Positions 5,035 to 33,913 of a stretch of 64,000 nucleotides of DNA are shown here, in pieces. Below the pieces are notes generated by a model, which was given only the letters and a program-made list of their open reading frames with translations, was not told the DNA's origin and made no database searches. Origin of the DNA: Acutalibacteraceae bacterium. GTDB lineage: Bacteria; Bacillota; Clostridia; Oscillospirales; Acutalibacteraceae. Position 1 is the stretch's first letter. Every line of letters starts with the position of its first letter. Location of the stretch: positions 24,099 through 88,098 of the forward strand of contig JAZNME010000037.1 in NCBI GenBank assembly GCA_045579445.1. The letters run 5' to 3'. The position numbers and the translations under genes are program-made.

Positions 5035-6552
5035 ATGGGAAGAAAAAAAGGTGTAATTTTTTCGTATATTTTTATGGCTACTGAAGCCGTTTCGAGTATG
5101 CTTTTCACTCCATTTGTTATACGGTGTCTTGGTGCTGAAGAGTATGGTATTTACGGGCTTGTAGCTTCGATAACGTCGTATTTGTATCTGTTGGATTTAG
5201 GCGTGGGAAATGCAATTGTACGATACATGGTTAAATTCCACGCAAACAACGATAAGAAAAACGAACAAAACGTTCTTGCCATAACAATGGTCTTTTATTC
5301 AATAATTGTTGCTGTTATAATCTTGGCAGGACAACTACTGAATTATTTTATCCCTACTTTATTTGGCGACGGACTTACTGCAGAGCAACATATTGTTGCT
5401 CAGAAAATGTTGAATATTACTGTTTTAACAGCTGCTGCAACTTTGTTTTTTGCTCCGTTGAAAAAAACACTTATAGCGTATGAGAGGTTTGCAACAAGTA
5501 AATCAATAGACATCTTCAAAGTAATGTTTAAAATTATATTAGGTTTTGTTGTTTTGCTTTCAGGCGGAAAAGGTGTTGCAGTTGTTGCAGTTAATCTTAT
5601 AGTAACTGTAGCTGCCGGCCTTGTGGAGACGGTGTACGTTTTCGGCAAAATAAAGCTTTTCCCCAAATACACAAAACCGGAAAAAGGCTTTATTTCTTCT
5701 ATTGTTGGTTTTTCTTCCTTTATAATGATTCAGATGATTGCTACGCAAATCAACGCTATGGTAGGTCAGGTACTTATAGGCATGTTTGTTTCGTCTTCGG
5801 CTGTAATCCTTGCGTTGTATACGGCAGGCACCCAAATTACAACATACTATCAGAGTTTTGGTAGTACAATAAATGGTGTTCTTATGCCGGGCGTAACACG
5901 AATGATAGAACAAAAAGCAACAACAAAAGAAATACAGAACGAAATGGTTAAAGTCAGCAGATTACTATTTGCCTTTCTTGGAATTATATTTGTTGGATTT
6001 TTGGTTTGCGGCAAAGAATTTATGGTAGCGTGGGCGGGAGAAGGATACGAAAAGTCTTATTACGTTGCTATAATTCTTATGATACCAATGTTGTTTTCGT
6101 TGGCGCAATCTATCGGGACACAAGTTTTATGGGCTATGGATAAACATAAGGAACAGTCAATACTAAAACTAGCTATATCTGTAGTAGCAACTGTTATTAT
6201 TATTGTTCTTATACAGTGGGACGGCCTTTTGGGAGCAACCATAGGTACAGCATTTGCTTACCTGGTAGGCGACGTGGTAGTAATGAATATCATTTTTAAA
6301 AAACATATAAAAATTTCCGTAAAAGGTTACTGGTTTGGTATGTTTAAGGGAATTTTGCCATGTCTTATAATTTCGGGCGTCGTTGGATTTTTAGTAAGCC
6401 TTACAAATCTGTCAGGATGGTCAGCAATATTGGTAGAGGGTGGATGTACTTGTATCGCTTATGGTATAAGTATGTTGATTTTCGGAATGAATACATATGA
6501 AAAAAATCTTCTCACTAAAATACCTATGGTTAAAAAATTTATAAAAATATGA
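5035..6552 (+). CDS. wzx: Wzx-type oligosaccharide flippase (MOP/PST family polysaccharide biosynthesis protein)
   Basis: 505 aa with about 12-14 hydrophobic segments. The N-terminal ..FTPFVIRCLGAEEYGIYGLV..LGVGNAIVRY.. is typical of PST flippases. It sits in a polysaccharide locus. Confidence 0.75.
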   Translation: MGRKKGVIFSYIFMATEAVSSMLFTPFVIRCLGAEEYGIYGLVASITSYLYLLDLGVGNAIVRYMVKFHANNDKKNEQNVLAITMVFYSIIVAVIILAGQLLNYFIPTLFGDGLTAEQHIVAQKMLNITVLTAAATLFFAPLKKTLIAYERFATSKSIDIFKVMFKIILGFVVLLSGGKGVAVVAVNLIVTVAAGLVETVYVFGKIKLFPKYTKPEKGFISSIVGFSSFIMIQMIATQINAMVGQVLIGMFVSSSAVILALYTAGTQITTYYQSFGSTINGVLMPGVTRMIEQKATTKEIQNEMVKVSRLLFAFLGIIFVGFLVCGKEFMVAWAGEGYEKSYYVAIILMIPMLFSLAQSIGTQVLWAMDKHKEQSILKLAISVVATVIIIVLIQWDGLLGATIGTAFAYLVGDVVVMNIIFKKHIKISVKGYWFGMFKGILPCLIISGVVGFLVSLTNLSGWSAILVEGGCTCIAYGISMLIFGMNTYEKNLLTKIPMVKKFIKI

Positions 6553-7619: not shown

Positions 7620-8819
7620 ATGAAAATTCTTGTTACAGGAGCAAAGGGCTTTGTAGGTAAAAATCTTTGTGCTGCGCTTTATAATGTGAGAGACGGCAAG
7701 GATAAAACAAGAGGTATTGATTCAGATATTACTGTTTTTGAATATGATATTGATACAGACCCTGCCCTTCTCGATGGCTACTGCAAGCAAGCAGATTTTG
7801 TATTTAATCTTGCAGGTGTAAACAGGCCACAGAATACAGAAGAGTTTATGGAAGGTAACTTTGGATTCGCTTCAACTCTTCTTGAAACATTAAAAAAGCA
7901 TAATAATAAATGTCCGATAATGCTTTCAAGCTCATTGCAGGCAACCCTTGTAGGCAGATATGCCGAGGGTGAGTACGGCAAGAGTAAAAAAGCGGGAGAA
8001 GATTTGTTCTTCGATTATTCAAATGAAACCGGCGCACCTGTTTATGTTTTTCGCTTTCCTAACCTTTTCGGTAAGTGGTGCAGACCTAATTACAATAGTG
8101 CTGTTGCAACCTTCTGCAATAATATTGCAAACGATTTGCCGATTCAGGTTAACGACAGAGCAATTGAATTAACCCTTCTTTATGTTGACGATTTGGTTGA
8201 CGAAATGTTCTGTATTTTAAAAGGCGATGCTCACAGATGCGAATATGATGGCCTTAATATTGTTGAAAAAGAAAACGGCAAATTCTGCTACTGCCCTGTT
8301 ACACATAACGTAACCTTAGGCGAAATTGTTGATTTGCTCCAGAGCTTCAAAAATCAGCCGTCAACATTAATTGTTCCTGAAATTCCTTATAATTCATTTG
8401 CAAAGAAGCTTTATTCAACATATCTTTCCTATCTTCCGAAAGAAAAAGCATCTTTTCCATTAAAAATGAATGTTGACCAAAGAGGTAGCTTTACAGAGCT
8501 TCTTAAAACTGAAAAATGCGGTCAGATAAGCGTAAATATTTCAAAACCCGGTATTACTAAAGGTCAGCACTGGCACAATACAAAGTGGGAATTTTTCATT
8601 GTTGTTTCAGGTAAAGGACTTATTCAGCAAAGGAAAATCGGTTCTGATGAGATTTTGAATTTTGAGGTCAGCGGAGAGAAAATTGAAGCTGTTCATATGC
8701 TTCCGGGTTACACACATAACATCATAAACCTTTCCGACACAGAGGATTTAGTTACTGTTATGTGGGCAAACGAACAATTTGACCCAAATAAACCTGATAC
8801 ATTCTTCCAGGAGGTTTAA
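7620..8819 (+). CDS. fnlB: CapF/FnlB/WbjC-type bifunctional reductase/epimerase (SDR domain plus C-terminal cupin) of the UDP-L-FucNAc pathway
   Basis: I placed the start at ATG 7620 (MKILVTGAKGFVGKNL Rossmann motif), directly after the fnlA stop at 7616-7618; the ORF-track N-terminal extension overlaps fnlA. The C-terminal cupin-like region reads ..GITKGQHWHNTKWEFFIVVSGKG... Confidence 0.8.
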   Translation: MKILVTGAKGFVGKNLCAALYNVRDGKDKTRGIDSDITVFEYDIDTDPALLDGYCKQADFVFNLAGVNRPQNTEEFMEGNFGFASTLLETLKKHNNKCPIMLSSSLQATLVGRYAEGEYGKSKKAGEDLFFDYSNETGAPVYVFRFPNLFGKWCRPNYNSAVATFCNNIANDLPIQVNDRAIELTLLYVDDLVDEMFCILKGDAHRCEYDGLNIVEKENGKFCYCPVTHNVTLGEIVDLLQSFKNQPSTLIVPEIPYNSFAKKLYSTYLSYLPKEKASFPLKMNVDQRGSFTELLKTEKCGQISVNISKPGITKGQHWHNTKWEFFIVVSGKGLIQQRKIGSDEILNFEVSGEKIEAVHMLPGYTHNIINLSDTEDLVTVMWANEQFDPNKPDTFFQEV

Positions 8820-27413: not shown

Positions 27414-27442
27414 TTGACAAATTTTGGGTAATATGATAGTAT
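27414..27442 (+). promoter_or_regulatory. Putative sigma-A promoter, divergent from the rpsO promoter
   Basis: TTGACA (27414-27419), 17-nt spacer, TGaTAGTAT extended -10 (27434-27442). Confidence 0.5.
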
Positions 27443-27448
27443 ATATAG

Positions 27449-27575
27449 CAATGAGGGAGTAATTCCGTACATAACACATTGTGCGCGACACCATCGTCAA
27501 CACAGAGCTTTTGCTCTCGGTGTGTCCTAAGTAAATGAGACTCATACATGGTTACCGCCATGTGTGAGTTTTTTG
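27449..27575 (+). ncRNA. Candidate small RNA, or a terminator-containing 5' leader of the SPFH gene (about 125 nt)
   Basis: It starts at the promoter above and ends at the terminator CTCATACATGG-TTACCG-CCATGTGTGAG + TTTTTTGTGTTTT (27541-27580). An internal hairpin GACACC..AGAGC-UUUU-GCUCU..GGUGUGUC spans 27487-27527. No SD-preceded ORF. Confidence 0.4.
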
Positions 27576-27613
27576 TGTTTTCGGATTTAATTAGCTACTA
27601 AATCTTCCTCACA

Positions 27614-27627
27614 GACTGCGCGCAGTC
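27614..27627. promoter_or_regulatory. Perfect 14-bp GC-rich palindrome GACTGCGCGCAGTC (possible operator)
   Basis: It is an exact reverse-complement palindrome, 46 nt upstream of the SPFH start codon, in otherwise AT-rich DNA. Confidence 0.3.
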
Positions 27628-27672: not shown

Positions 27673-28473
27673 ATGGACAAAAAGAAAATTATTAAAATTG
27701 TGGTTCTCGTGGTATGTGTTGCCCTTGTTGGTACAGTACTTGCAACATGCTTCACAGTTGTTAAGGCAGGCCACACAGGCGTTGTGCTTACCTTCGGCGC
27801 AGTTGAAGAGAATGTGTTTGATGAAGGCTTGCACTTTAAAATACCGCTTATTCAGAACGTGGTGCAGATGAACAACCGTACACAGAAAATTGAAACAGAC
27901 GGTACAGCTTCATCTAAGGACCTGCAGATTATTTCATATGTGGTTGCAGTAAACTTCCACGTAAACGATGCATCATCTGCATCTCTTTATCAGAATGTTG
28001 GTATAGACTACGGCACAGTTATTATTGTACCCGCAATTCAGGAAAGTATTAAAGCTGTTACTGCTCAATTTACTGCAGAAGAGCTTATTACAAAGCGTCA
28101 GCTTGTTGGCGACCAGATTAAAGAGGCATTATCCGAAAAGATCGGTGAGTATGGTATTGTTGTTGAAATATTCAACATTGTAAACTTTGATTTCTCAGAG
28201 GAATTCAATGCGGCAGTTGAAGCTAAGCAGACCGCTCAGCAGAATGCCCTTAAGGCAGAGCAGGACCTTGCACGAATTGAGGTTGAAGCAAAGCAGAAAA
28301 TTACTCAGGCAGAGGCAGAAGCAAAGAGCATTCAGCTCATTCAGGATGCTCTCGAATCATCACCAGACTACGTTGACTACATAAAGTGGAGTAAGTGGGA
28401 CGGTAAGCTTCCTTCTGTTATGGGCGATAACGGAGTGCTCGTGGATGTAGGGGACATAAATCCTGCGCAATAA
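27673..28473 (+). CDS. SPFH/Band-7 (prohibitin-like) membrane protein
   Basis: N-terminal TM helix, then ..VKAGHTGVVLTFGAV..GLHFKIPLIQNVVQM..TKRQLV.. and an Ala/Glu/Gln-rich coiled coil. AAAGGAG SD. Confidence 0.8.
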   Translation: MDKKKIIKIVVLVVCVALVGTVLATCFTVVKAGHTGVVLTFGAVEENVFDEGLHFKIPLIQNVVQMNNRTQKIETDGTASSKDLQIISYVVAVNFHVNDASSASLYQNVGIDYGTVIIVPAIQESIKAVTAQFTAEELITKRQLVGDQIKEALSEKIGEYGIVVEIFNIVNFDFSEEFNAAVEAKQTAQQNALKAEQDLARIEVEAKQKITQAEAEAKSIQLIQDALESSPDYVDYIKWSKWDGKLPSVMGDNGVLVDVGDINPAQ

Positions 28474-28481
28474 AATGTGTC

Positions 28482-28512
28482 AGCCTTCCGTTTTTAGCGG
28501 AAGGCTTTTTTA
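28482..28512 (+). terminator. Intrinsic terminator after the SPFH gene
   Basis: AGCCTTCCG-TTTTTAG-CGGAAGGCT followed by TTTTTT. Confidence 0.75.
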
Positions 28513-28534
28513 AAAATCAAGAGGAGGAAAGATA

Positions 28535-30301
28535 ATGACACATATTGATTTGTTGAACTATTTAACAGATGTTCAAAGAATTGAAAAGTCTGATTTAGCA
28601 GAGCTTATAGGTGTTCCTCAGAAGAAAATTGATGGTGTACTGTGCGGTCAAATCGAATTAAAGAAAAAGTGGTTGAAGAACTTATCTCTTTTTACGGGTA
28701 TACCTGAGCAGGTAATTTTAGCAGGAGAATTTAATCTTCAATATTCTGTCGAAACACAAGAATCACAGGCAGAAGGTGAACAACCACCTGTTACACCTGA
28801 ACAAACTCCTGAAATGTCGGAAGCTTTGAAGGACTATAACTATGGTAGGTTAATGACCTTCTGCGAAACAAGGCATAAAAAAAGATACAGAGATATTAAG
28901 CAGGGTATCGTTATTCAGATAGCCGCAGCAATAGTTGGTTTGCTTTTTTCAATAGCTTGTGGAGTTATTGTTGTTCTGCAAAAGCCTATGATGGATATAT
29001 TTATGTTTCCGTTAATTTGCTTTATCCCCTCTTTTATGACGCTTCTTCCTGTAAGAGGCTTATATAAAATAGCAAAAACCGGTAGCAAAAGTGAGGAAAA
29101 GAATTTTAAAATTTACACTTTACTTTCTGTTTTGCCTATGCTGATTCACACGGTAGCAGGTGTTTGCTTTAAGGTTTATCCTGTGTGGGCAATTGGCTTT
29201 GCAGCAGCATCGTTATTACCACCGATATATTTTGTTTTTGTAAAAGATTTGGAGAAAAAAACAACACAATTGCAGAGCTCTCTCAGTATAGCGTTTTCTT
29301 TCCTTACAAGCTGTGCTTTCGGTTACAGCATTGTTATAGGTGAATTTATTGAAAGAGATACAGAAGAAATTGTTATAATGGCTTCTTTGATAGCTGTTAT
29401 TGTTGCTTGGGGCGTAGTGGCTATGGCTCTTTGCTTCATAAATTATTTTTATTATTGCTATCATAAGGTTATTGTAACTTCTAAGTATTTTCAGCCTATT
29501 CCTGAAAAGCCTTTATTTAAAAAGCACCATATACGTAATAAGATAATCGCTCTTGTGCTTGCAGCAATAATTTTTGTTGGTGGGACATATATTCTTTCTT
29601 GTGCAATTATGTATTGGAATGTTGATGTTATGATAAATGCAGAAGATTATCCTATGCCGAAATATTCAGAGTATGACAAATCTGATATTAACTTTACATC
29701 GGAAGACGATGTAGTAACTGTTGATAACGAGTGTTACACAGTTAAGCTTCCTGCCGATATGAAGAAAGACGAGAAAATAACGGATTGTGACACATATAAG
29801 GTTGAAGGCGTTGGAGGAATGGTAATGATATATCCTGAAGATTACCTGGGAAATTCATTACCCAAGCTGTATTTCAGCGAGGATGCTACTCCGAGAGAAA
29901 ATAAGATTATGGCTGAATATAAGCAGAAAATTATAGATGAATATGGTTTTTACCCGCAGTCTTCGTATGAAATAAAGAAGATAGTAAAAGATGTTCATGA
30001 GAACGGTGTGGACTTTTGGGATAGAAAGCAAGCTGCTGCAGTTATACCGATGCTGATTTTTGAATCTACCTTAGCTTATGATAATGAGATAATCTTTTAC
30101 GAGGATTCTGAAATTGAAATGGTTTTAACACTTCGCAGAACAGAGACATCAGAAACCAAAATGACGATAGTAACATGTCAGGTAGATGCGAACAAAAAAG
30201 GTGACTATAATAAAGATGTAAACCTTAATATTTTGCTAAGAAGCGACTACGCAGACGAAGAGCTTCTGTACAAAATCATCAACAGTATTGAAATGAAGTA
30301 A
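28535..30301 (+). CDS. Membrane protein with N-terminal XRE-type HTH, about 7 TM helices and a roughly 215-aa C-terminal (predicted extracytoplasmic) domain; uncharacterised family
   Basis: HTH-like ..KSDLAELIGVPQKKIDGVLCGQIELKKKWLKNLSLFTGIP... I counted seven hydrophobic segments by eye (aa 124-361). The C-terminal soluble domain ends KIINSIEMK. GAGGAGG SD. Confidence 0.6.
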   Translation: MTHIDLLNYLTDVQRIEKSDLAELIGVPQKKIDGVLCGQIELKKKWLKNLSLFTGIPEQVILAGEFNLQYSVETQESQAEGEQPPVTPEQTPEMSEALKDYNYGRLMTFCETRHKKRYRDIKQGIVIQIAAAIVGLLFSIACGVIVVLQKPMMDIFMFPLICFIPSFMTLLPVRGLYKIAKTGSKSEEKNFKIYTLLSVLPMLIHTVAGVCFKVYPVWAIGFAAASLLPPIYFVFVKDLEKKTTQLQSSLSIAFSFLTSCAFGYSIVIGEFIERDTEEIVIMASLIAVIVAWGVVAMALCFINYFYYCYHKVIVTSKYFQPIPEKPLFKKHHIRNKIIALVLAAIIFVGGTYILSCAIMYWNVDVMINAEDYPMPKYSEYDKSDINFTSEDDVVTVDNECYTVKLPADMKKDEKITDCDTYKVEGVGGMVMIYPEDYLGNSLPKLYFSEDATPRENKIMAEYKQKIIDEYGFYPQSSYEIKKIVKDVHENGVDFWDRKQAAAVIPMLIFESTLAYDNEIIFYEDSEIEMVLTLRRTETSETKMTIVTCQVDANKKGDYNKDVNLNILLRSDYADEELLYKIINSIEMK

Positions 30302-30338
30302 AGCTATCGCAAACGAAAAAATCAAGAGGAGAAAAATT

Positions 30339-32060
30339 ATGACTCATATTGATTTACTGAATTTTATTATTGATGTTCAGAATATCCCGAAAAATGAGCT
30401 TGCAGAGCTTATTGGTGTACCACTCAAAAAGATGGATGATGTTCTCAGTGGCGCTATGCCACTTAAGAAAAAGTGGCTGAAGAACTTATCTCTTTTTACA
30501 GGTATACCAAAGGAGGCAATTCAGTCGGGAAATTTTGCGCTTAACTATCCGGAGGGTGAGGTAGCACCTGCATTGGATGTATACGTGCCCGAAGCAATTC
30601 GCGAAGAAAACACAAGAAGGCTTAATTTCTATTCGAAGAAGAGATATAAATCAGATTATCAGGACGTTGTACTTATTAAAATATTAGGAATATTCAATTT
30701 GGCTATGAGCTGGATTATTCCTTTGGGATTGATGGTTATTTACAGTATAAACGCAGTTTCTGATTTAATTAAAATTATGCTGTTAGGTATCATTCCTGCT
30801 ATGATAGGTGTTTCTATATTGCGAAATGCATATAAATTCGCTAAAAATGGTGTTCCTGCGGATGAAAAAACCTTTAATTATTATGGTGCTCTTTCAATAA
30901 TACAGATATTGATTTTTTTAGTATCTCTTACTGTTTTCAAATGGACCTCTCCTGTTGCTCTTGTTGTTATGATATTAACAGCTCTGCCTATCTTCTATGA
31001 AGTATTTATTGTTAAAGATAAGGATTTAAGTTTTTTAAAACATACTCTTGTATCTATAACCTGTGTAGTAGCATTCCTTGCTCTTGTTTTTCTTTTGCTT
31101 ACAGGGGAAAAAGCAGATAGTATAGAAAATGAAACACAAGCTATTATTTTTATAGGGCTGTTTAGTAGCGGTTGGCTATCAACATATTTTTCTTTTGCTA
31201 GTGTTCTGATAAGCAAATACTATTATTGTAAAAGGACGGGTATTTCAAAGTATTTCGGTGCCGTTGTTAAAAAGCCTGTGTTCAAAAAAGGTAGAGCTGT
31301 AAAAAGTGCTATCGCAATTGTACTTGCATGTGCAGTTGTTTTTGCCACAATTTATATTGCGCCGGTTGTTTTGCTTGATGGGGCAATGTCTACAGCGATT
31401 GACGGATTTAATGAAGAAAAGGTAGAGACCCGGTACATTGATTACAACAAAGAGGATATTACTTTTGGCGAAGACGAACAAGTTGTAACAATAGAAGAAG
31501 AAAATTACAACATCAAACTCCCCGTTTATCTGGAGAAAAACGAAAAAATTACTACCAGGGATGGCTATCAAAATAAAGAAAAAATGACTGTAGTTTTTAT
31601 AGAGGAAATTTATTTTGATTATAGTGATGTATTTACATACGATGGTGATGATGAAGAGAACAAAGCATCTTTCGAAAGGCTTAATAAAACCATTAAAGAT
31701 AGATATGGTTTTATTCCTAAAGGACAATATGAATACTTTAAGCTTCTAAAACTAATTTCTGAAGATAACATTAGTCCATTCAATCGAGATTTGAGCTTAG
31801 CTGTTTCCCTTTTCACAAATCTTGAAAAAATGCTAGCGTATGATAATGTATATTTGTATGAAGATTCTGAAAAGTGTTTTTGTATTTGTGAGAATATCAT
31901 AGAGAGAGAAAGCGGTAATTTTACTCACACTTATAGTATAAATGGTAATGCAAAGGGTGATTATGATAAATTCTTTTCTATTACTGTTATGGTAGTTACC
32001 GAAACGCCTGCAGATATGGATTTGCCATTTAAAATTATAAACAGTATTGAGATGAAATAA
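30339..32060 (+). CDS. Paralogue of the preceding gene (XRE-HTH, 7 TM, C-terminal domain)
   Basis: Same architecture. The N-terminal 65 or so aa are highly similar (MTHIDLLN..LAELIGVP.KK.D.VL.G...LKKKWLKNLSLFTGIP). The last 9 aa, KIINSIEMK, are identical. The 5' UTR (AAAAATCAAGAGGAG) and 3' flank (TAAAGCTATCGC) are duplicated. Confidence 0.6.
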   Translation: MTHIDLLNFIIDVQNIPKNELAELIGVPLKKMDDVLSGAMPLKKKWLKNLSLFTGIPKEAIQSGNFALNYPEGEVAPALDVYVPEAIREENTRRLNFYSKKRYKSDYQDVVLIKILGIFNLAMSWIIPLGLMVIYSINAVSDLIKIMLLGIIPAMIGVSILRNAYKFAKNGVPADEKTFNYYGALSIIQILIFLVSLTVFKWTSPVALVVMILTALPIFYEVFIVKDKDLSFLKHTLVSITCVVAFLALVFLLLTGEKADSIENETQAIIFIGLFSSGWLSTYFSFASVLISKYYYCKRTGISKYFGAVVKKPVFKKGRAVKSAIAIVLACAVVFATIYIAPVVLLDGAMSTAIDGFNEEKVETRYIDYNKEDITFGEDEQVVTIEEENYNIKLPVYLEKNEKITTRDGYQNKEKMTVVFIEEIYFDYSDVFTYDGDDEENKASFERLNKTIKDRYGFIPKGQYEYFKLLKLISEDNISPFNRDLSLAVSLFTNLEKMLAYDNVYLYEDSEKCFCICENIIERESGNFTHTYSINGNAKGDYDKFFSITVMVVTETPADMDLPFKIINSIEMK

Positions 32061-32086
32061 AGCTATCGCGAACATGTAAAAAACAA

Positions 32087-32112
32087 AAGCCTCCCGTGAA
32101 AACGGGAGGCTT
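32087..32112. terminator. Bidirectional intrinsic terminator
   Basis: AAGCCTCCCGT-GAAA-ACGGGAGGCTT. The T-tract is strong on the minus strand (TTTGTTTTTT). Confidence 0.75.
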
Positions 32113-32125
32113 GAATTATACCATC

Positions 32126-32470
32126 TTATTCTGCAGGAGCTGCTTCTGCGATTTTGTTAAGGTCGTTCTGAATCATGCAAAGAGCAACAATACCGAGACC
32201 AAGGAAGCCGATGATAAGGTAAATGATTGAATTATCCTTATGCTCAATTCCTTTTTCTGCACAACCTTCTGCAAATTTCTTTTCTGTAAGGAAAAGACCT
32301 ACAGGGCCAAGGAAAAGGCTGAGCACAATTTCAAGAACTGCGCTGTCGTTGGCATCCTTAACAGAAACTGCATCCTTTACAAGCATAACAATCCAGTAAA
32401 TGCCGTAAATACCGCAAGTAACGATTGTGAGAAGAATAGATGTAACAATATTTCTCTGTTTAATGTTCAT
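32126..32470 (-). CDS. DUF4234-type small membrane protein
   Basis: I placed the start at ATG 32470 (AAGGGGG SD). The sequence ..NIVTSILLTIVTCGIYGIYWIV.. is the DUF4234 signature. The ORF-track N-terminal extension has no support. Confidence 0.6.
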   Translation of the reverse strand: MNIKQRNIVTSILLTIVTCGIYGIYWIVMLVKDAVSVKDANDSAVLEIVLSLFLGPVGLFLTEKKFAEGCAEKGIEHKDNSIIYLIIGFLGLGIVALCMIQNDLNKIAEAAPAE

Positions 32471-32624
32471 AATTAACCCCCTTATAAAATAGAAGCAGTT
32501 ACTTCTTGAAATAAGTTTAGCACAATCGACAAAATTCGTCAATATTTCAAGAAAATTTTGTTTATTGTTGATTATTGGGAACAAAAAGAGTATAATGCCC
32601 ATAATATTTTTAAAAGGTGATATT

Positions 32625-33620
32625 ATGAAAACTTTCAGCTATAAGGATAAACCAATCGAAGTCCACGGAGTGCCGTTTTTTGAGAAAACAGGTGTGCTTG
32701 AAAGGCTTCCGGAGGATGTGCGCAAGGCGGTGCCATCTCTTGATGGTCTTGGCAGACGTTGCCCTGGTGCGAGGATTTGTTTTCGTACCAATTCACCAAA
32801 AATACACTTAGAAATGATCTTTAAAACGCTTAGCTGGGATATAGGTATGTCTATCTACGACTGCCAGGCAGCAAATGTTATGATAGGTGAGCGTCAGAAC
32901 GCACGCTTTGCAGGACTTCTTCATCCGCAGGATTATGAAACTATGGTGTGCGAAAGGGAGTTTTCAAAGGATTCTTCAATGGAGGATGTAACAATCTGGC
33001 TTCCGCGTAATGAGGAGATTGCAGATTTTACAATTTCAATAGAAGATGGTGCAGTTATTGAAGCCCCCACACCATATAAATATCCGCCAATGCTCTACTA
33101 CGGCTCTTCAATCACCGAAGGCGGTTGCTGCTGCAGAGTAACAAATGTGTATAACGCTATTATTTCTCAGCACCTTGATATTGACTACTATAATTTAGGC
33201 TTTTCAGGTAATGCAAAGGGTGAGCTTGAAATTGCAGACTACATCAACACTATTCCAATGAGCATTTTTGTTTATGACTATGACCACAACGCACCATCTG
33301 TGGAGCATCTCGAGAAAACTCACGAAGCATTTTTTAAAAGAATCCGTGAGAAAAACCCTGATTTACCTATAGTTATACTTACAAAGCCTGATTTTGACTA
33401 TGACCCTGAGGGCGCAGAGCGTCGCAGGGTTATTTACAGAACATACGAAAATGCTGTAATTTCAGGAGATAAAAACGTTTACTTTATTGACGGACAAACA
33501 TTTTTCGGTGATGAAGATCGCCATTTCTGCACCTGCGACTGTTGCCATCCCAATGACCTGGGATTTTATCGTATGGCTTCAGTCATCGAACCCGTTATAA
33601 GACAAATCTTGGGCGAATAA
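32625..33620 (+). CDS. SGNH/GDSL-type hydrolase (carbohydrate esterase-like), no signal peptide
   Basis: I placed the start at ATG 32625 (AAAGGTG SD). Block I ..YYGSSITEGG.., block III ..GFSGNAKG.., block V ..CHPNDLG... Confidence 0.65.
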   Translation: MKTFSYKDKPIEVHGVPFFEKTGVLERLPEDVRKAVPSLDGLGRRCPGARICFRTNSPKIHLEMIFKTLSWDIGMSIYDCQAANVMIGERQNARFAGLLHPQDYETMVCEREFSKDSSMEDVTIWLPRNEEIADFTISIEDGAVIEAPTPYKYPPMLYYGSSITEGGCCCRVTNVYNAIISQHLDIDYYNLGFSGNAKGELEIADYINTIPMSIFVYDYDHNAPSVEHLEKTHEAFFKRIREKNPDLPIVILTKPDFDYDPEGAERRRVIYRTYENAVISGDKNVYFIDGQTFFGDEDRHFCTCDCCHPNDLGFYRMASVIEPVIRQILGE

Positions 33621-33827
33621 CTTGTTTTTTCGCTGCTCGCAGTACCTATGTACAGTGTCGCATCTTAAAACTGCGTTCTTCATCCCAATCTTTGTCTTAT
33701 AAAACAGATGTAAATGGGCAAATAACTTGTTTTTTCGCTGTTCGCAGTACCCTTGTATAGTGTCGCATCTTAAAACGGCATTCTTCATCCAAATCTTTGC
33801 CTTATAAAACAGAGGTAAATGGGCGAA
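33611..33827 (+). repeat. Tandem direct repeat, 105-bp unit, 2 full copies plus a 7-nt start of a third
   Basis: Copies at 33611-33715 and 33716-33820 differ at about 10 of 105 positions by manual alignment. GGGCGAA starts again at 33821. Copy 1 begins inside the last codons of the SGNH gene. Confidence 0.85.
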
Positions 33828-33841
33828 GAGATAAAAGGAAA

Positions 33842-33913
33842 AGTGCAAAATGCAAAGTGTAAAGTGCAAAGTGTATAGTGCAAAAAGTCGGAACGCTACG
33901 CGTTAATTTAAAA
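33842..33913 (+). repeat. Composite repeat: TGCAAAGTG-word array joined to copy 3 of CGGAACGCTACGCGTTAATTTAAAA
   Basis: AGTGCAAAATGCAAAGTGTAAAGTGCAAAGTGTATAGTGCAAAAAGT followed by CGGAACGCTACGCGTTAATTTAAAA (33889-33913). Confidence 0.8.

Follow-up and report, generated by a model that had tools for sequence, protein, structure and literature searches.

Several described systems join a cytoplasmic domain to the membrane, and each does so in its own way. BcrR has four transmembrane (TM) helices and no large outer domain, and it adjoins its target ABC transporter. ToxR, TcpP, CadC and VtrA carry a winged-helix OmpR-type domain on one TM helix, often with a co-component (ToxS, VtrC). RodZ, a conserved single-copy morphogenetic factor whose helix-turn-helix (HTH) binds MreB, has one TM helix and a DUF4115 domain, and 7TMR-DISM-type receptors have their outer domain at the N-terminus and their output module at the C-terminus. 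A census of transmembrane transcription regulators counted 50,302 of them, with the HTH as the commonest DNA-binding domain; 56% were single-pass, some had up to 22 TM regions, and BcrR figures there as an XRE-type one-component regulator that acts from the membrane (PMC10269533). Here we describe two adjacent genes, A and B, in a stretch of 64,000 nucleotides (nt) from an Acutalibacteraceae bacterium (assembly GCA_045579445.1, contig JAZNME010000037.1, positions 24,099 to 88,098), which we call the window and whose first letter is position 1. We propose, with a probability of roughly 0.6, that A and B arose by an old tandem duplication, belong to a small, unannotated family of polytopic transmembrane transcription regulators and act as one-component systems. 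Computation establishes their paralogy, domain architecture and topology, together with the distribution of the family and recombination at the level of modules. The two genes and their predicted parts are as follows.

28535-30301, forward strand: gene A, 588 amino acids (aa)
28535-28738, forward: gene A residues 1-68, predicted cytoplasmic five-helix XRE/Cro-C1-type HTH (AlphaFold2, Foldseek, family profile)
28739-28888, forward: gene A residues 69-118, acidic and proline-rich linker followed by a basic juxtamembrane helix (AlphaFold2, charge counts)
28889-29614, forward: gene A residues 119-360, predicted seven-helix TM core with basic cytoplasmic loops 2, 4 and 6 (hydropathy, TM scores, positive-inside counts, AlphaFold2)
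29615-30301, forward: gene A residues 361-588 and stop codon, predicted acidic extracytoplasmic alpha/beta domain ending in KIINSIEMK (domain model, Foldseek, charge)
30302-30338, forward: A-B spacer of 37 nt, without a hairpin, containing AGCTATCGC (30302-30310) and AAAAATCAAGAGGAG (30317-30331) (sequence, flank comparison, alignment to the ancestral SPFH-X spacer)
30339-32060, forward: gene B, 573 aa
30339-30542, forward: gene B residues 1-68, predicted XRE/Cro-C1-type HTH, 69% identical to that of A (A/B alignment)
30543-31391, forward: gene B residues 69-351, linker, juxtamembrane helix and predicted seven-helix core (hydropathy, charges, TM scores)
31392-32060, forward: gene B residues 352-573 and stop codon, predicted extracytoplasmic alpha/beta domain ending in KIINSIEMK (A/B alignment)

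Genes A and B lie on the same strand with 37 nt between them, and both the coordinates and the lengths agree with a first-pass annotation of the window that had described neighbouring 588- and 573-aa genes of like architecture. The two proteins align end to end at 35% identity (E 5e-88). Identity is highest in residues 1-68 (69%), so that the HTH is the most conserved module of the pair, and amounts to 36% in the linker, 28% in the TM core and 34% in the C-terminal domain, the last nine residues of which, KIINSIEMK, are 100% identical. The juxtamembrane motifs common to both, AK(T/N)G..EK.F, YYC, SKYF and KP.FKK, had been listed at the first pass and are visible in the pairwise alignment. As had also been claimed, the duplication extends into the flanks: the 15-nt AAAAATCAAGAGGAG stands ahead of both starts (28512-28526 for A, 30317-30331 for B), and TAA-AGCTATCGC follows both genes (30299-30310 and 32058-32069). 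Since the latter is also present in a single-copy relative, L003, it is the ancestral flank, copied along with the gene. The A-B spacer can be aligned to the ancestral SPFH-X spacer with an internal deletion and, given that the flanks are shared as well, the alignments identify the spacer as the duplication junction and the common flanks as the borders of a tandem duplication. Judged by synonymous divergence, the duplication is old. At codons for identical residues, synonymous differences are equally frequent in the N-terminal domain (43%), in the last nine codons (44%) and elsewhere (45-50%). Recent gene conversion is thus ruled out as the cause of the conserved ends, which seem instead to have been kept by purifying selection on the protein.

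An XRE-type HTH had been assigned to the N-terminus at the first pass; the fold holds up, whereas a direct Pfam match in A or B does not exist. An AlphaFold2 model of A, built on an alignment of 14 sequences, places helices at residues 3-13, 18-25, 29-37, 44-54 and 58-63 with a predicted local distance difference test score (pLDDT) of ~86, helices 2 and 3 making up the HTH. In Foldseek searches this domain matches the P22 c2 repressor (TM-score 0.77 by target length, root-mean-square deviation (rmsd) 2.1 Å, 64 columns), the DdrO HTH (TM-score 0.71), 434 Cro (0.69), CylR2 and HigA-type antidotes, with probabilities of 0.97-1.0, and its superpositions on Cro/C1 repressors have an rmsd of 1.7-2.6 Å across 60-64 residues. 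Nearly all matches of a family N-domain profile among the sequences of the Protein Data Bank (PDB) are of XRE type, the best being CylR2 (E 0.0017, 56 residues); a single-sequence phmmer search of the N-domain against the same sequences found nothing. A further line of evidence comes from P0031, a full-length homologue that aligns to B residues 6-571 (E 1.4e-9) and whose residues 4-58 match HTH_26 with 32.2 bits, against a gathering cutoff of 22. A precomputed PF13443 match exists in 7/7 members of the P0031 subfamily, and five other divergent homologues have sub-threshold HTH_3, HTH_26 or HTH_19 matches at the same position. On the strength of predicted structure and transitive homology, we accept the N-domain of A and B as an XRE/Cro-C1 fold, which would bind DNA. 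Its most invariant stretch, LKKKWLKNLS, sits in helix 4, not in the recognition helix. Behind the domain, A has a disordered acidic and proline-rich linker of ~20 residues (~71-89, pLDDT <50) and then a helix at 92-113; across the family the linker varies in length and sequence and contains no conserved cleavage motif. One database protein of 256 aa (P0030) holds a 70-residue piece of the family N-domain and linker inside unrelated sequence, which most likely reflects a chimera made in assembly or gene calling and not a true domain fusion.

The topology of the membrane part was deduced from 20 family members. Column-averaged hydropathy (in A numbering) delimits hydrophobic cores at 126-146, 156-173, 197-232, 252-266, 286-302 and 338-353. 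AlphaFold2 models the 36 residues of 197-232 as a helical hairpin, which brings the total to seven TM helices, in agreement with the modelled helices. Mean net charges are +4.3 on the N-flank, +2.9 in loop 2, +1.9 in loop 4 and +6.8 in loop 6, and on the other side -0.4 in loop 1, -2.3 in loop 5 and -2.4 on the C-flank. Lysine and arginine together number 15-24 on the N-flank and even loops versus 2-7 on the odd loops and C-flank in 20/20 members, and the positive-inside rule therefore predicts, unambiguously in all of them, that the N-terminus is inside and the C-terminus outside. Hydropathy, TM scores and positive-inside counts thus agree with the earlier proposal of an odd number of hydrophobic helices, seven, and an external C-terminal domain. 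The TM helices contain almost no conserved polar residues (the invariants, among 14 members, are P165, F212 and Y232), which speaks against the core of a transporter or an enzyme. Conservation in the core is concentrated in cytoplasmic loop 2 (AKxG..EK.F) and loop 6 (SK.F...K..FKK), and the overall pattern fits a signal-transmitting scaffold better.

For the C-terminal domain of A, a model of the domain alone (pLDDT 90, predicted TM-score 0.87) shows five beta strands at the start, three long helices in the middle, then four long strands and a helix at the end; the net charge of the domain is ~-21. The identical KIINSIEMK end had been recognized correctly at the first pass, and the size is ~225 aa instead of the ~215 aa then given. 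The best folds in Foldseek are the PsbP-like 9grx_0 (E 1.5e-3; TM-score 0.38 by query, 0.50 by target), PsbP 1v2b, Tsi3 and DcrB; over the matches, probability reaches 1.0, E ranges from 1.5e-3 to 9e-2, rmsd from 6 to 13 Å and identity from 6 to 11%. In a viral structure library the two best matches were phage lipoproteins, and a profile of the domain found no match among PDB sequences. The domain is probably, but not firmly, a decorated Mog1/PsbP/DcrB-like sandwich. For the TM core, Foldseek with the full-length model gave nothing above noise, the matches being AcrB and an opioid receptor at probabilities <0.1. A lead toward class-D beta-lactamase and BlaR1-like sensors, raised by weak matches of the full-length model (rmsd ~8 Å), was lost once the domain-only search preferred PsbP-like folds.

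With a predicted HTH fold and seven TM segments, A and B fall within the class of transmembrane transcription regulators, which is defined by one or more TM regions in a protein that also has a predicted DNA-binding domain (PMC10269533). Their predicted parts follow one another as a cytoplasmic HTH head, a flexible linker, a basic juxtamembrane helix, seven TM helices and an acidic outer domain of ~225 aa, with the conserved and strongly basic loops 2 and 6 facing the cytoplasm. We suggest that A and B sense a signal, in that a ligand or envelope cue could act on the outer domain, the helical bundle or both. The cytoplasmic loops and juxtamembrane helix would thereby be repositioned, and this might alter the dimerization or DNA access of the tethered HTH and so switch transcription from the membrane.

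The family is small. It comprises 15 clusters among 5.8 billion proteins; an exhaustive phmmer search of 1.84 billion proteins yielded 29 representatives, several of them fragments, and a set of 185,579 species genomes contains 16 family loci, every one of them in a metagenome-assembled genome (MAG) of Acutalibacteraceae, Oscillospiraceae or uncultured Clostridia. It is multi-copy, sporadic and fast-evolving, and dispersed paralogues can share one genome (L011 and P0045 are from the same MAG). Profile searches of the 5.8-billion-protein database led only to the same close members or to one divergent subfamily and gave no bridge to an annotated family. The view, taken at the first pass, that the proteins match no characterized family is upheld by searches of Pfam, NCBIfam, PADLOC and PDB sequences, all of which came back without one. 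No relatives were found on 72,556 plasmids (tblastn of A, E<=0.01) or in 50,697 phage genomes, PADLOC gave no match for A, B, SPFH or DUF4234 at E<=0.1, and the only PHROG matches of the family are HTH regulators. An origin as a defence system or from a phage or plasmid is ruled out by these missing matches.

Within the family, tandem pairs recur. A neighbour-joining tree and per-module identities distinguish three allele types (A, B1 and B2), which are combined differently at the conserved locus:

A alone: L001, L003 and L006
B1 alone: L007
B2: L008 (contig truncated on the upstream side)
A and B1: the window
B1 and B2: L014; also L013 with L012, from one MAG

Single proteins are mosaics of these types. 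P0004 combines an HTH of type B (93% to B) with a membrane core of type A (96% to A), while its outer domain has diverged (61% to A). In P0003 the membrane core and outer domain are the other way round, at 70% and 96%; P0011 joins an HTH close to that of A (89%) to a body of type B. The tandem copies in L014 are 97-100% identical over the promoter region and first ~270 nt (~5920-6270 and 7747-8097), a stretch that includes HTH and linker, and identity falls abruptly at the juxtamembrane helix, a pattern that indicates a recent conversion or duplication tract ending at a module border. Divergence rates, estimated by the Nei-Gojobori method, point the same way. The family gene is 54-79% identical where the flanking proteins are 92-100% identical, and its ratio of nonsynonymous to synonymous divergence (dN/dS) is 0.15-0.40, compared with 0.01-0.04 for the flanking genes. 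Synonymous divergence (dS) is 0.34-0.71 in the flanking genes, and in segments of the family gene it runs from 0.10 to 1.0-1.5: the lowest value belongs to the membrane core of L006, younger than the flanks, and the highest to the HTH and outer domains of the same gene, older than the flanks. Because segments lie both below and above the flanks in dS, these estimates demonstrate that modules have been exchanged between lineages and that constraint is relaxed. Divergence of the TM core is no slower than that of the outer domain, and since no module has a dN/dS above 1, positive selection is not demonstrated. A wider interpretation, which we consider doubtful, is that the family constitutes a modular, recombining set of sensor-regulators, with HTH, seven-helix and outer-domain cassettes shuffled between lineages and the HTH homogenized in some genomes. 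Strains would then differ in extracellular specificity (A, B1, B2) on a common operator, in the manner of pherotypes or for sensing bacteriocins, phages or competitors, by a novel receptor architecture, among uncultured gut Clostridia that degrade fibre.

The following elements surround the two genes.

27673-28473, forward: SPFH/Band_7 gene upstream of A (Pfam Band_7, E 9e-35)
28482-28512, forward: intrinsic-terminator-like hairpin (AGCCTTCCG..CGGAAGGCT; 28482-28506) and T-run between SPFH and A (terminator scan)
28512-28534, forward: gene A 5' leader with ribosome-binding site (RBS) AGAGGAGG (28520-28527) and AAAAATCAAGAGGAG (sequence, flank comparison)
32087-32112, no strand assigned: bidirectional terminator-like hairpin common to B and the convergent DUF4234 gene (terminator scan, sequence)
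32126-32470, reverse: gene for a small DUF4234 membrane protein, convergent with B (Pfam DUF4234, E 3.7e-11; homologues 114 aa)

In the clade of the window the order is SPFH, family gene or genes, convergent DUF4234 and usually an SGNH esterase, at six or more loci, with rpsO/pnp as the outer flank in some and a HAD hydrolase in others; L007 has no SGNH gene. These SPFH/DUF4234 loci all belong to one closely related clade (flank proteins 77-100% identical). SPFH, DUF4234 and SGNH are missing beside the family gene from 11 more distant loci and also from L025 and L026. The context in L017-L024 is an alpha/beta hydrolase and a YgjV-like protein, with SASA esterase and GH38 genes also adjoining; in L015 and L016 it is a beta-helix protein, and in L025 and L026 an NTP-transferase with FeoAB. 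No partner gene is conserved across family clades, which we count in favour of a stand-alone function, and no protease gene is conserved nearby in any of them. The SPFH/DUF4234 membrane module suggested by the first-pass annotation is therefore lineage synteny, not a property of the family, the neighbours being missing at every locus outside the window's own clade. Its second suggestion, that the nearby esterase/dockerin cluster is the target, finds no family-wide link and no shared operator. Genes for carbohydrate-active enzymes (CAZymes) are abundant in the genomes of fibre degraders, and their closeness to family genes is thus weak evidence.

Several features of the neighbouring genes are recorded here in their own right. 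In the L017 clade, the most divergent syntenic one, a predicted lipoprotein of ~313 aa (308-314 aa, lipobox LVSC|A, no Pfam match) is encoded by a gene that ends 2 nt before the family gene in 4/8 loci (for example L018:5060-5998; also L020, L021 and L022), and the remaining loci have a canonical promoter in its place. As it occurs in only those 4/8 loci and is unrelated to the family, it is ruled out as a conserved co-component. Two longest-ORF calls in the window are too long: the DUF4234 frame (32126-32602, reverse) has 114 codons from 32470 in all relatives, not 158, and the SGNH esterase frame (32565-33620, forward) probably starts at ATG 32625, giving 331 aa as in homologues, not at TTG 32565. 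A 105-bp unit present twice (90% match) begins in the last codons of the SGNH esterase gene and is followed, upstream of a CE15 glucuronoyl-esterase gene, by ~6.4 copies of the heptamer AAAGTGC; this repeat region (33610-33884) was found nowhere else in the window, nor in related loci. Directly downstream of the CE15 gene, a 2456-aa secreted protein (35125-42495, forward) is made up of numerous repeats of ~170-190 aa, each in two parts, with a duplicated calcium-binding motif resembling a dockerin (DINRDGEVDVND ... DVNGDGAIDVLD) at its end.

The terminator between SPFH and A is kept in its stem and variable in its loop at five syntenic loci, and it abuts the RBS of the family gene, which leaves no room for a promoter there. 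The family gene of the window clade thus has no promoter of its own; its expression, probably at a low level, would depend on read-through of the terminator behind SPFH. A and B would probably be co-transcribed, riding on attenuated read-through from the SPFH promoter. Elsewhere in the family, L017 has its own canonical promoter (TTGACT-17-TATAAT) and L014 a separate promoter for each copy. Upstream of SPFH (27414-27585, forward) lies a strong sigma70-like promoter, TTGACA-17-TAGTAT with TG, and behind it ~130 nt of conserved, structured leader, closed by a terminator hairpin (27537-27572) with a T-run. Five loci keep this leader irrespective of which gene lies upstream, and its terminator stem shows one compensatory pair; it may act as an attenuator or as a leader of the riboswitch type, or else be a small RNA. 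Rfam, at gathering thresholds, matched no family in any part of the window. At 27614-27627, ~45 nt upstream of the SPFH start codon, stands a perfect 14-nt palindrome, GACTGCGCGCAGTC. Each syntenic locus has it a single time, in identical or nearly identical form, with no further occurrence, and it could be an operator or a small hairpin. An inverted repeat in the DUF4234/SGNH promoter region (32522-32568) is ruled out as an operator, as it is kept in the closest locus only.

Certain observations weigh against reading A and B as membrane-bound transcription regulators. Neither protein has a Pfam or NCBIfam HTH match, and the isolated N-domains of ~70 residues have none in Pfam even at E<=10. 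The first-pass annotation had expected HTH_3 or HTH_31 at residues 1-65 and had named the lack of a significant HTH hit as refuting its proposal; taken literally, such a lack is what the search of A and B returned. TM6, on which the odd TM count hinges, is weakly hydrophobic in B-type members (1.07-1.48 versus 2.82 in A), though free of charged residues in them. The fold matches of the C-terminal domain are modest (TM-score 0.34-0.56) and point to no ligand. No operator or regulon was found, and the sole conserved palindrome nearby (27614-27627) is upstream of SPFH, not of the family gene. Finally, a membrane-anchored XRE-type HTH may bind protein instead, as that of RodZ does. If it did so here, A and B would be membrane scaffolds or adaptors, possibly together with the SPFH microdomain protein, an alternative that the missing Pfam match, the position of the most invariant stretch outside the recognition helix and the invariable placement of the window-clade gene transcriptionally downstream of SPFH would all accommodate. 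We nevertheless regard it as unlikely, given that the top structure and profile matches are DNA-binding repressors and antitoxins, with RodZ absent from the top 50 Foldseek and 22 profile matches, that the SPFH linkage is confined to one clade, and that seven TM helices, no DUF4115 and a multi-copy, sporadic, fast-evolving distribution are unlike a core morphogenetic factor.

Regulated proteolysis has reportedly been described for membrane-bound regulators, and the same architecture might operate in that way, with the linker or core being cut on a stimulus to free the HTH as a soluble repressor or activator, in the way known from anti-sigma factors. The disordered acidic and proline-rich linker between HTH and membrane part would offer a site, but it is variable and lacks a conserved cleavage motif, no clade has a conserved protease gene nearby, and XRE-type BcrR works while membrane-bound (PMC10269533); we think this a little less likely again than a role in protein interaction. 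It is improbable, in our estimate, that A and B act together with SPFH and DUF4234 as a membrane module and regulate the downstream SGNH/CE15 esterase and dockerin cluster in response to plant polysaccharide. The SPFH-X-DUF4234-SGNH order at six or more loci with differing outer flanks is what such a module would show, and two other clades likewise have carbohydrate-active genes close by (SASA esterase and GH38 in L017-L024, the beta-helix protein in L015/L016). The loci concerned nonetheless form one close clade with flank proteins 77-100% identical, eleven more distant loci and L025 and L026 do without these genes, L007 does without SGNH, CAZyme genes abound in these fibre-degrader genomes and no shared operator was found. 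Least probable of all, we judge, is that A and B serve above all as polymorphic molecules of the cell surface, such as a receptor for phages or a determinant of sensing or immunity when strains compete, with rapid modular turnover as the key property and signalling secondary. The low identity of the family gene next to its well-conserved flanks, its elevated dN/dS, the spread of segment dS from 0.10 to ~1.5 and the differently combined alleles A, B1 and B2 at one locus all fit such a role. Set against them are the lack of any domain with dN/dS above 1, the lack of PADLOC, phage or plasmid relatives, and a TM core that diverges at least as fast as the exposed domain, which surface-directed selection alone would not lead one to expect.

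One-component regulators of the membrane-bound kind are common, but few of them have been characterized, and most known ones are single-pass; to these the family adds a seven-helix design and a new outer domain. Its hosts are uncultured fibre degraders of the rumen and gut, in which environmental sensing is poorly understood. Because A and B have no Pfam DNA-binding match, censuses based on Pfam would miss them and are to that extent incomplete. The natural swaps of HTH, core and outer domain are ready-made chimeras for studying how a signal passes through a polytopic core to a tethered DNA-binding head, and practical impact will be limited until a ligand or regulon is identified.

By sequence and architecture, the A/B family lies outside the BcrR, ToxR/CadC and RodZ families. 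By analogy of design, BcrR is the nearest characterized counterpart: in both, an N-terminal XRE-type HTH is joined directly to a multi-pass membrane region, and both come from Firmicutes. A and B differ from it in their seven TM helices, their 225-aa outer domain and the lack of an ABC transporter next to either gene; tblastn of A against the 72,556 plasmids, among which BcrR plasmids are assumed to be included, found nothing, and the protein searches gave no named relative. With ToxR, TcpP, CadC and VtrA they would share a cytoplasmic N-terminal DNA-binding domain, a membrane anchor and an extracytoplasmic sensor, such that one protein would both sense and regulate, and they differ in having an XRE fold, seven TM helices and no conserved partner. 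The N-terminal five-helix bundle superposes on the Cro/C1 repressors (P22 c2, 434 Cro, CylR2, DdrO, HigA), and its profile aligns to CylR2; those repressors are soluble, whereas the domain in A and B is membrane-tethered and too divergent for Pfam models. RodZ resembles the pair in its cytoplasmic XRE-clan HTH, membrane anchor and extracytoplasmic C-terminal domain, but A and B match neither HTH_25 nor DUF4115 at E<=1, and RodZ is not among their top structure or profile matches. In 7TMR-DISM and related 7TM receptors, too, a seven-helix core couples an extracytoplasmic domain to a cytoplasmic output, in the reverse order of modules, and Pfam 7TM receptor models do not match A or B. The closest folds found for the C-terminal domain of A are PsbP, Mog1, DcrB and Tsi3; the domain is ~70 residues bigger than such domains, with a three-helix insert in the AlphaFold2 model (C-domain residues 92-152). 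Thus the general principle is already known, and what is new here is the joining of an XRE head, through seven TM helices, to a probably PsbP-like outer domain, together with the natural swapping of these modules.

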